From the NCBI RefSeq assembly GCF_988242995.1, contig NZ_OZ547043.1: 64,000 nucleotides of DNA. One strand, 5' to 3'. Shown piece by piece: positions 59,835 through 63,220 of this stretch; the stretch's first letter is position 1, and each line of letters begins with the position of its first letter. The position numbers and the translations under genes are program-made. Under the pieces are notes generated by a model. That model was given only the letters and a program-made list of their open reading frames with translations, did not search any database and had not been told where the DNA came from.

Positions 59835-59993
59835 GATCGTCTCCTTGCAGTGTGAGGTATAACAAGGGTAGACGTGACTGGCGAAATCTTCGCCAGTCGG
59901 TAACAGCTTTACGACGGCTATCACGAATTTACGGGCAAGGACTACAGAGATAACTAAAACTCTCTCAAAAATCGCAAATTTTGAGATAGTTTA

Positions 59994-60024
59994 AAAAATG
60001 GCTGACAATTAGCCAGCCATTGGG
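59994..60024 (-). terminator. Rho-independent terminator downstream of yiaY
   Basis: Hairpin ATGGCTGACAATTAGCCAGCCAT with T-run on minus strand (A-run on plus). Confidence 0.6.
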
Positions 60025-60034
60025 GGAATGATGA

Positions 60035-61186
60035 TTACATCGCAGCGCGATAAATTGCCACAATCTCTTCGTGAGTTGCCTGAATCGGGTTAGTAAACCC
60101 ACACGCATCTTTCAGGGCATTGGTGGCCAGTACCGCGAAATCCTCTTCTTTCACGTTCAGGTCACGCAGGCCTGCCGGGATATTCACTTTCTTCGCCAGT
60201 TCACGGATGGCATTGATGCACGCTTCTGCGCCTTCCGCGTCATTTTTGCCTGTCACGTTAACGCCCATGGCAGCAGCACAGTCACGCAGACGCGCAGCAG
60301 CGACTTTGCTGTTGAACACCTGAACGTGTGGCAGCAGAACGGCATTACATACACCATGTGGCAGGTTGTAGAAACCGCCCAGCTGGTGCGCCATCGCATG
60401 AACATAACCAAGAGATGCGTTGTTGAATGCCATGCCAGCGAGGAACTGGGCATAAGCCATTGCTTCACGCGCTTTAGCATTGCTGCCATCTTCAACGGCT
60501 AACGGCAGATTTTCGGCAATCATGGTCACCGCTTTCAGTGCGCAAGCGTCAGTGATCGGCGTTGCAGCAATTGAAACATACGCTTCAATAGCGTGTGTTA
60601 AGGCATCCATACCGGTTGCGGCGGTCAGTGACTTCGGCATACCGATCATCAGAGAGGAGTCATTGACAGAAAGCAGCGGGGTCACGTGCTTATCAACAAT
60701 CGCCATTTTGATGTGACGCGCTTCGTCAGTGATGATGCAGAAACGGGTCATTTCAGAGGCCGTACCCGCCGTGGTATTGATGGCGATCATCGGCAGCTGC
60801 GGTTTTGCAGAGCGGTCAACGCCTTCATAATCGCGAATATCGCCACCATTGGCCGCCACCAGCGCAATACCTTTTGCGCAGTCGTGTGGAGAACCACCGC
60901 CTAAGGAAATCACGCTATCGCAATTATTTTCTTTAAGTAATTTCAAACCTGCAGCGACGTTTTCCGTGGTGGGGTTAGGTTGGGTGCCATCATAAATAAC
61001 ACTAAAAATATTGCGTTCTTCCAGTGCTTTTTGCACATCACCCGCCATACCCAATTTCGTTAACATATTGTCAGTGACAATTAAGGTACGGGTAAATCCA
61101 TAATCTGCCATCATATTCATTGCATCATTCAATGAATCAGCACCAATAACATTCACGGAAGGAATAAAAAAGGTTGAAGCTGCCAT
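60035..61186 (-). CDS. yiaY: Iron-containing (group III) alcohol dehydrogenase YiaY, 383 aa
   Basis: Fe-ADH family ORF with NAD-binding GGGSPHD motif. Confidence 0.9.
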
Positions 61187-61283
61187 AACACACTCCTGAA
61201 AGTGTAAAAAAGGGCGGGCAGCTTACTGAGGATTTTCATTCAAAAATATGATCAGTATTATTGATTATCAAAATTAATCTAAT

Positions 61284-61322
61284 AAAAAGCACATTGTATT
61301 CATTAAACAATGTGCTTTTTTT
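61284..61322 (-). terminator. Rho-independent terminator downstream of selB (bidirectional hairpin)
   Basis: AGCACATTGT...ACAATGTGCT hairpin flanked by A-run and T-run. Confidence 0.7.
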
Positions 61323-61375
61323 AAATTCATAAGAATTTTGTATTAATTTATTTTAAAACTTAATTAATCATTTCC

Positions 61376-63220
61376 TTATTTTTCCGGAAATAATAATGCG
61401 TCGCGCAATAAATGATCATTTCCACGACGACGCGTAAAGCCAATGCGGTCAAAATATTCCAAAATCTGAATTGCCAGCTTTCGGCCTACACCTAAGCGAT
61501 CGCGGAAATCCGCCGCGCAGGTTGAACCACACTCCTGATCGAGATCGCGGATCATATTGGCAAACTCGACAATCCGATCGTTACGGTAATAACGATCTTT
61601 AACGATCGCGGTAATTATCCCCTGCTGCGCCGCCTGGCGTAGCGTCAGGCGCATTGCCTGCTCGTCGGTTCCCGTCTCTTTTGCCAGGTCACGCACCCAC
61701 CACGGTTCGTCACCAAACAGCGGCTCTGCTTTTTGCCAGACGACCTGCTGCTCTTCGCTGAAGCCCGCTTTATGATCCGGCAGATGCAGCCAACCGTGAT
61801 GACTGAGGATGTCGCCGCTTTCGCGCATCTTTTCAATCAGCAACAGTACCAGCGCTTCATCTTCCATTGGCAACGCCATACGTCGCAGACGTTCGCGCCC
61901 AGGACCAGGTTCATCGCGATGTTGCTCATGATAAGTCGCTAATGTGTCGAGAATTTTCCGCTGCCAGCGGGCGGCAACCGGCGCATTCAACAAGCTATAA
62001 CCAGCCTGAATATAGCCAGGCTGTTGCAGCAGTTCGCGCATCCCTTCGCCGTTGAGCTGCCGTGCCCAGGCGAAATCCGCAAGGTTAACCGCTCCGCGTT
62101 CCAGATGAACAGATAACGCATCGGCATCGCTCTGCGCCCGTGCAAGAGACGCCAGCCATTGCAGATATTCCGGCTTACGCTTACCGCGACGCGGCGGGTT
62201 AAGCATCACCACACGCGCCCCCGCCAGCGTGTTGCGGGCCGAGATATCGCGCAGCACCAGGCGATCGTTATCCGCCAGCCATAGCGGCGTGTCGAACACC
62301 AGCTCGGCAAGGTTATCTTCCAGCAGCGAAACGCGTCCCGTGACGTGGCTGGCGGCGTGGTGAATATGCAGCGGCTGCCACTGGGTCAGCGGTGTATGGG
62401 TTTGAAGCTCGACAATCACCCGTGTGAAAGGCTCCGGCGGCGCATCGGCAAGCAGCCAGTCACCACGGTGAATCTGCTCTTTTTCCGCATCACCCGCGAT
62501 GTTAAGCGCGATACGCTGACCGGCATGGGCAGTTTCTGTTGGCTGATTTTGCGCATGCAGCGCACGCACGCGCATCGGTTTATTTACACCAGTCAGCCAT
62601 AGTGAATCGCCTACCTTCACTTCCCCGCTTAACGCCGTACCGGTGACGACCAGCCCGGCACCTTTTACGGTAAATGCACGGTCGATCGCGAGGCGGAAAC
62701 TATGTTGGCTGGCGTGTTCACGTTCTGGTAACTGAAGCAAATGCTCGCGCAGGGCATCAATTCCCCGACCTTCGGTTGCTGCGGTGATAAACAGTTTTGC
62801 CTCAGCAAAACCGTATTCCCGCAGCACCTCCTTTACCTGGCGTTCAACCTCATCAACACGCGCTTCGTCCACGCGATCGGCTTTGGTCAGCGCCACTGTC
62901 AGCATCGGGTTACCGGTCAGCTGCAAAATCGCCAGATGCTCACGGGTCTGTGCCATCACGCCGTCATCGCACGCCACCACCAGCAGCGCATGATCGATAC
63001 CCCCGACGCCCGCCAGCATGTTGGAAAGAAACTTTTCATGACCGGGAACGTCGATAAAACCAGGCACGCGGCCATCCGGCTGCGGCCAGTAGGCATAACC
63101 GAGATCGATGGTCATGCCGCGCTTTTTTTCTTCCGGCAGACGGTCGGCATTTACGCCAGTAATCGCCTGCAATAAGGTTGTTTTGCCGTGGTCAACGTGT
63201 CCGGCAGTCGCAATAATCAT
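61376..63220 (-). CDS. selB: Selenocysteine-specific translation elongation factor SelB (614 aa)
   Basis: N-terminal GTPase ([10 protein letters not shown]) plus winged-helix C-terminal domains. Confidence 0.95.

Follow-up and report, generated by a model that had tools for sequence, protein, structure and literature searches.

Organization of the selB–yiaY locus

The DNA under study is the E. coli intergenic spacer between selB and yiaY; positions refer to the whole 64-kb stretch that was analyzed (the window). The two open reading frames, encoding 614 and 383 residues, respectively, lie on the minus strand and bound the spacer exactly, in agreement with the 189-bp interval between yiaY and selB given in a preliminary description made from the sequence. 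Read in the direction of transcription, the spacer carries a conserved AT block, a putative selB terminator, a candidate yiaY promoter and the yiaY Shine-Dalgarno sequence (Table 1).

Table 1 Features of the selB–yiaY spacer and its flanking genes (window coordinates).
Feature	Position	Strand	Basis or remark
selB, selenocysteine-specific elongation factor	61376–63220	−	gene predicted to be ended by the hairpin
selB–yiaY intergenic spacer	61187–61375	−	189 bp, 75.7% A+T
Conserved AT block of the selB 3'UTR: ATTAAT, 21-nt start-to-start spacing, ATTAATACAAAAT	61335–61368	−	alignment
A7 tract 5' of the stem	61316–61322	−	lengthens the helix; T7 tail on the plus strand
Putative selB intrinsic terminator, core stem-loop GCACAUUGU / 9-nt loop / ACAAUGUGC	61289–61315	−	fold and compensatory changes
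U-tract UUUUUAUU directly 3' of the stem	61281–61288	−	sequence; T-run after the hairpin in every ortholog
Candidate −35 TTGATA, also first half of the FNR-like TTGATAATCAATAA (61271–61258, 8/10)	61266–61271	−	sequence match
GATCAT(A/G)TTTT block	61243–61253	−	identical in all 8 aligned sequences except at the A/G position
Candidate −10, TATTTT or CATATT	61248–61243 or 61250–61245	−	within the GATCAT(A/G)TTTT block
Dam GATC site	61250–61253	−	in the candidate −10 block
yiaY Shine-Dalgarno AGGAG	61193–61197	−	6 nt before the ATG at 61186; conserved as AGGAG or AAGGA
yiaY, Fe-type alcohol dehydrogenase annotated as L-threonine dehydrogenase	60035–61186	−	gene predicted to be served by the promoter

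The yiaY and selB annotations and a match to an 801-nt query around the interval are present in 5,425 of 5,426 complete E. coli genomes. The K-12 MG1655 spacer (NC_000913.3, 3757828–3758016) has the same length and differs from that of the window strain at one base (188/189 identical). Within E. coli the spacer is polymorphic, many genomes showing 90–95% identity, and 65 of the 5,426 complete genomes fall short of at least 80% coverage of window positions 61100–61460. In E. coli 2017.15.02CC (locus L083, 3248–3945; ~61375 in the window) an IS1 element directly follows selB, and everything from yiaL' to yiaY is lacking; the arrangement resembles a deletion associated with IS1 and anchored in this spacer.

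Base composition and predicted curvature

The A+T content of the spacer is 75.7%, compared with a mean of 48.7% (sd 6.1%) for 189-nt segments of the window. Just 0.11% of such segments reach this value, all of them overlapping the selB–yiaY locus, and the spacer is the top-ranking 189-nt block of the 64 kb. The composition is uneven, with 83% A+T over the 145 bp from 61231 to 61375 and 52% over the 44 nt beside yiaY (61187–61230), which hold the 5'UTR and the Shine-Dalgarno sequence. The longest run of A and T alone is 18 nt (61341–61358), and homopolymers include a T7, an A6 and two A5 tracts. Both neighboring genes share in the AT-rich island, with 40% GC over the first ~300 nt of yiaY and 39% GC over the final 100 nt of selB. 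The depiction of the interval as strongly AT-rich with long A/T tracts is therefore accurate.

Predicted curvature has a mean of 13.1 degrees in the spacer and 8.9 degrees in the window, with a spacer maximum of 20.9 degrees at the 98th percentile, values that were computed with Bolshoy/Trifonov wedge parameters and are usable only as a relative ranking. Curvature had been proposed in the preliminary description as a check, and the outcome is unremarkable: it is moderately raised, but 12 peaks elsewhere in the window exceed the spacer maximum and the helical phasing of AA/TT steps in the spacer is not significant in a periodicity test (p = 0.12–0.22). The aldB–yiaY spacer on the other side of yiaY (59925–60034, peak at 59970) has the second-highest predicted curvature in the window, 35 degrees against the mean of 8.9, and exceeds any value in the selB–yiaY spacer.

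A putative terminator downstream of selB

A hairpin begins 55 nt past the selB stop codon. Its arms (61284–61297 and 61307–61320) are complementary at 14 of 14 positions, and the minus-strand RNA including the A/U extension folds with −20.1 kcal/mol (z = −5.4). The order of elements, A7–stem–U5AUU, is that of an intrinsic terminator, a stable stem-loop with a U-rich tract. Because the A7 tract provides a T7 tail on the opposite strand, this anatomy is bidirectional, and the plus-strand fold has −15.9 kcal/mol (z = −6.1). Activity on the plus strand would stop only antisense transcripts, since selB and yiaY are co-directional. A simple terminator scan missed the hairpin; the scan accepts loops of 3–8 nt and the loop here is 9 nt.

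The structure has been kept in evolution. A hairpin and a T-run are present in every aligned spacer, and the stem is maintained by compensatory substitutions in CFT073 (GCACGUUAU/GUAACGUGC), Citrobacter (GCACAUUAG/CUAAUGUGC) and Kluyvera (GCACGUUAGG/CCUAGCGUGC) as well as in E. albertii. Pseudocitrobacter has in its place an unrelated GC-rich stem of 13 bp followed by U6. The compensatory substitutions are good evidence of selection on a terminator-like structure. Together, anatomy and covariation suggest an intrinsic terminator that ends the selAB transcript, and they back the selB terminator hairpin of the preliminary description as a putative terminator. The curated Term-seq tables of Adams et al. 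2021, which cover three aerobic conditions, list neither a 3' end at the hairpin (K-12 37579xx) nor an entry for selB; expression of selAB may be too weak for their thresholds.

The hairpin and U-tract could also close a small RNA derived from the selB 3'UTR, and the spacer contains short open reading frames of 23–30 codons, among them a 28-codon frame (61239–61153) that overlaps the yiaY start. An unannotated gene for a small RNA or small protein in the spacer is nevertheless barely credible. No Rfam model matched near threshold at permissive E-values (best 22.7 bits, E = 2), and no 3' end is recorded at the hairpin by Adams et al. 2021. The short frames are devoid of ribosome-binding sites, and the ATG of the 28-codon frame is kept only in Escherichia.

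The candidate yiaY promoter

On the yiaY strand the sole promoter-like match is TTGATA (61271–61266) followed after 17 nt by TATTTT (61248–61243), which agrees with the consensus at 9 of 12 positions and lies ~30 nt past the hairpin. The region contains 2 promoter-like matches against 2.4 in shuffled sequences. The promoter prediction foreseen in the preliminary description thus returns a TTGATA-17-TATTTT pair at shuffle level, of which only the −10 block is conserved. Neither TTGATA nor the overlapping TTGATAATCAATAA is conserved in CFT073, in E. coli B2 strains or in other genera. For the −10 region of yiaY, the GATCAT(A/G)TTTT block is the strongest candidate on sequence grounds. Transcription would then start near 61236–61240 and yield a 5'UTR of roughly 50 nt carrying the AGGAG. 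The literature offers computational promoters only for yiaY (yiaYp4 and yiaYp6; RegulonDB-style), and no mapped yiaY transcription start within the spacer was found in the one published dataset searched.

The 28-codon ATG frame (61153–61239, minus strand) opens where yiaY transcription is predicted to start and runs, in a different reading frame, across the start of yiaY. A perfect 8-bp pairing between AAGCUGCC and GGCAGCUU (61217–61224 with 61177–61184, minus strand) joins the yiaY 5'UTR to codons 1–3; an inner hairpin spans the Shine-Dalgarno sequence and, together with this pairing, could occlude translation initiation. A 5'UTR structure that occludes the yiaY start codon was rejected as a candidate feature, as the fold has a z score of only −1.7 and the pairing, kept in Escherichia, is not clearly kept in Citrobacter.

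Expression of yiaY without a promoter of its own, by read-through from selAB with the hairpin as a regulated attenuator, would accord with the lack of a yiaY transcription start in the dataset searched and of a listed Term-seq 3' end at the hairpin. Termination may also be leaky, because the GC content of the stem is moderate, the loop is 9 nt long and the U-tract is interrupted. However, the spacer's most conserved block, which resembles a −10 element, comes after the hairpin, and yiaY shows strong responses to O2/FNR, Ler and hns (see below); selB appears in none of the supplementary tables of Myers et al. 2013 (PMC3688515). Read-through is accordingly judged highly unlikely as the source of yiaY expression.

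Conservation across genera

When species-representative genomes were scanned with YiaY, 80 loci were obtained, and selB and yiaY are still neighbors in E. albertii, three Citrobacter, Pseudocitrobacter, Kluyvera, Superficieibacter and two further Enterobacteriaceae. In the five named genera the spacer is 167–189 bp long with 69–77% A+T (189 bp in E. albertii; 167–188 bp in Citrobacter, Pseudocitrobacter and Kluyvera); in the two further Enterobacteriaceae it is 120 bp long and not AT-rich. Outside the Escherichia–Citrobacter group aldB is found upstream of yiaY, in Pluralibacter gergoviae (L009) and in loci L028, L032, L033, L043, L049, L051, L061, L064 and L071 of the scan. The E. coli order is selB–yiaY–aldB, unlike the selB–aldB–yiaY of Pluralibacter.

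Besides the hairpin and the −10 block, the AT block of the selB 3'UTR is retained in the alignment across five genera. The spacer contains three copies of ATTAAT against 0.5 in shuffled sequences. The conservation of ATTAAT-(21 nt)-ATTAATACAAAAT is weaker evidence because of its two-letter composition; the block may serve H-NS or Ler as a nucleation site, or an upstream regulator as a binding site. If this block and the GATC overlapping the −10 were specific regulatory sites instead of generic AT-rich DNA, they might serve a dedicated regulator or an anti-silencer, or might act as a Dam-methylation-sensitive yiaY switch beyond the terminator of the neighboring gene. Such a specific-site reading of the conserved blocks is decidedly unlikely.

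Anaerobic expression and FNR

RNA-seq of Shigella flexneri places yiaY at +3.18 log2 anaerobically and at −2.73 log2 in Δfnr. The expression dependence of an FNR-activated promoter is therefore present in Shigella; neither a box at an activating position nor in vivo occupancy was found. The best match to TTGAT-N4-ATCAA, at 61258–61271, scores 8/10 with both mismatches in one half-site, and its center lies at about −28 relative to the best promoter. A position of −41.5 would result only from a hypothetical start near 61223 with GAAAAT as the −10 element. The FNR peak tables of Myers et al. 2013 (PMC3688515), S5–S7, contain no entry for yiaY or selB, and for this reason the effect of FNR on yiaY may be indirect. 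FNR as a direct activator of yiaY was rejected as unproven, in view of the missing K-12 ChIP peak in those tables and of a poor box that occurs at chance frequency and is not conserved.

In three Citrobacter spacers (L004, ~2855–2870; L005; L006), an FNR-like box that matches at 9/10 positions, TTGATTGAAATCAG, directly precedes the terminator hairpin. The box of K-12-like E. coli is instead the 8/10 match at the −35, and both boxes are missing from B2 E. coli. These differences may reflect binding-site turnover.

H-NS occupancy and proposed silencing

Chromatin immunoprecipitation on microarrays (ChIP-chip) of H-NS in MG1655 was reported by Myers et al. 2013 (PMC3688515) with coordinates of U00096.2. 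The offset between U00096.2 and NC_000913.3 is 1977, verified with the sigma-70 peak 'exbB/metC' at 3150014, which then falls in the exbB–metC spacer; the K-12 selB–yiaY spacer is thus at ~3755851–3756039 of U00096.2. It lies inside both H-NS regions listed in Table S3 of that study, the aerobic one at 3755059–3756664 (1.6 kb), whose midpoint of 3755861 falls in the spacer, and the anaerobic one at 3755039–3757215 (2.2 kb). Both belong to the extended class (>1 kb) that the same authors tie to filaments and to low RNA polymerase (RNAP) occupancy.

Expression data point in the same direction. Table S11 of Myers et al. 2013 (PMC3688515), which collects genes regulated by O2 only in the Δhns/ΔstpA strain, gives yiaY a +O2/−O2 ratio of 0.153, a ~6.5-fold anaerobic induction and the seventh strongest in the table; yiaY is absent from the table of the wild type under aerobic and anaerobic conditions. 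Ler, which antagonizes H-NS, increases yiaY expression in enteropathogenic E. coli (EPEC) E2348/69 by 5-fold in one growth phase and 9-fold in another, and the authors of the Ler study predict that Ler-activated genes are H-NS-repressed. All binding and expression data were obtained in K-12, EPEC or Shigella and not in the window strain, with which K-12 shares 188 of 189 spacer positions. The region thus shows a high A+T content, in vivo H-NS occupancy in the K-12 literature and a change, at the level of expression, upon removal or antagonism of H-NS. Strong curvature, phased A-tracts and the nucleation motif TCGATAAATT, which are frequent in H-NS-bound DNA and not required for binding, were not detected, and consensus scans of the spacer for H-NS, Fis, IHF, ArcA, CRP, FNR, NarL and sigma-54 returned nothing above dinucleotide shuffles.

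For IHF, Table S4 of Myers et al. 2013 (PMC3688515) contains an anaerobic ChIP-chip peak at U00096.2 3756423–3756791 (~61759–62127 in the window), in the 3' half of selB and ~400 bp from the spacer. A perfect match to the Fis consensus at 61403–61417 is inside selB and expected by chance. Within yiaY, ~400 nt past the start codon, Adams et al. 2021 place a region of Rho-dependent, bicyclomycin-sensitive termination (NC_000913.3 3757428, minus strand; ~60787 in the window). Termination regions of this kind are common in H-NS-silenced genes, and the site would fit the known cooperation between Rho and H-NS.

The preliminary description had proposed a nucleoid-protein-bound, conditionally silenced promoter in this interval, with published ChIP data for H-NS as a check. 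Coverage of the spacer in both H-NS regions, the O2 response confined to Δhns/ΔstpA, the 5–9-fold effect of Ler and the anaerobic, FNR-dependent expression in Shigella all uphold that proposal. Its further statement that such regions are typical upstream of alcohol dehydrogenase genes does not hold as a rule, since the predictor is base composition and not the kind of gene.

H-NS might instead be a passive occupant, the AT-richness being the sum of terminator A/U tracts, promoter elements and A+T mutational bias, with yiaY controlled by specific anaerobic factors alone. The lack of a nucleation motif above chance, the moderate curvature and the polymorphism of the spacer within E. coli are compatible with this account, as is the FNR-dependent anaerobic induction in Shigella, which is hns+. 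It sits poorly, however, with an O2 response of K-12 yiaY that is listed only for Δhns/ΔstpA and is missing from the wild-type table, with the induction by Ler, the known activating mode of which is H-NS antagonism, and with the correlation of extended (>1 kb) H-NS regions with low RNAP occupancy. A purely passive role of H-NS is considered unlikely.

A composite model of the spacer

The spacer is best explained as the selB terminator followed by an H-NS-covered, conditionally expressed yiaY promoter region, a reading to which we assign a probability of about 80%. On the minus strand, the end of selB would be followed by a 55-nt AT-rich 3'UTR and by an intrinsic terminator, consisting of A7, a 9-bp GC-containing stem and U5AUU, that would end the selAB transcript. 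The yiaY promoter would come next, with the almost fully conserved GATCAT(A/G)TTTT as its predicted −10 region and a weak, poorly conserved −35. As the published ChIP-chip data show for K-12, the tract of 83% A+T and the AT-rich ends of both genes are coated in vivo by an extended H-NS filament, which would keep yiaY silent in ordinary laboratory growth. Expression is seen when H-NS/StpA are removed and O2 is absent, when Ler is present or, in Shigella, anaerobically and with dependence on FNR. Each of these effects is established at the level of expression, and a direct mechanism is inferred.

Nucleoid-protein binding of the spacer is already in the literature, and the feature is real, ordinary and not novel: a conventional composite intergenic region, normal in the core genome of Escherichia and Citrobacter. 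It is a case in which a reader of the sequence alone can flag an H-NS-covered promoter by base composition, and the scattered evidence gathered here depicts yiaY as a cryptic, H-NS-silenced, anaerobically inducible dehydrogenase gene. This may be of interest to those who engineer E. coli for alcohol, aldehyde or threonine metabolism, work in which yiaY deletions are frequent; beyond annotation the significance is small, and no open question is made testable.

Comparison with known systems

The hairpin shares with canonical Rho-independent terminators a stable stem followed by a U-run, a location 55 nt past the stop codon and a stem kept by compensatory substitutions. It differs from them in having only 4 G-C pairs out of 9, a 9-nt loop and an interrupted U-tract (U5AUU). 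The 5' A-tract, which makes the hairpin symmetrical, is shared with bidirectional A-tract/stem/U-tract terminators.

FNR class II promoters, in which the box is centered at −41.5, have in common with the yiaY region the FNR-dependent anaerobic expression (in Shigella) and a TTGAT half-site near the promoter. Unlike theirs, the yiaY box scores 8/10, is centered at about −28, is lost in B2 strains and other genera and has no K-12 FNR ChIP peak.

Also close to the yiaY region are the H-NS-silenced and anti-silenced E. coli promoters, such as those of hlyE, bgl, proU and the LEE operons (Category 7 of Myers et al. 2013). In contrast to these, the AT island of the spacer is short (~300–500 bp) and is flanked by two genes of the core genome with normal GC content instead of lying in horizontally acquired DNA; an FNR peak is not listed for it even in Δhns/ΔstpA, and neither a high-affinity nucleation motif nor strong curvature was detected. 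Like them, it is a very AT-rich promoter region within an H-NS region of more than 1 kb, and its gene is silent in standard growth, anaerobically induced upon deletion of hns/stpA and responsive to Ler.
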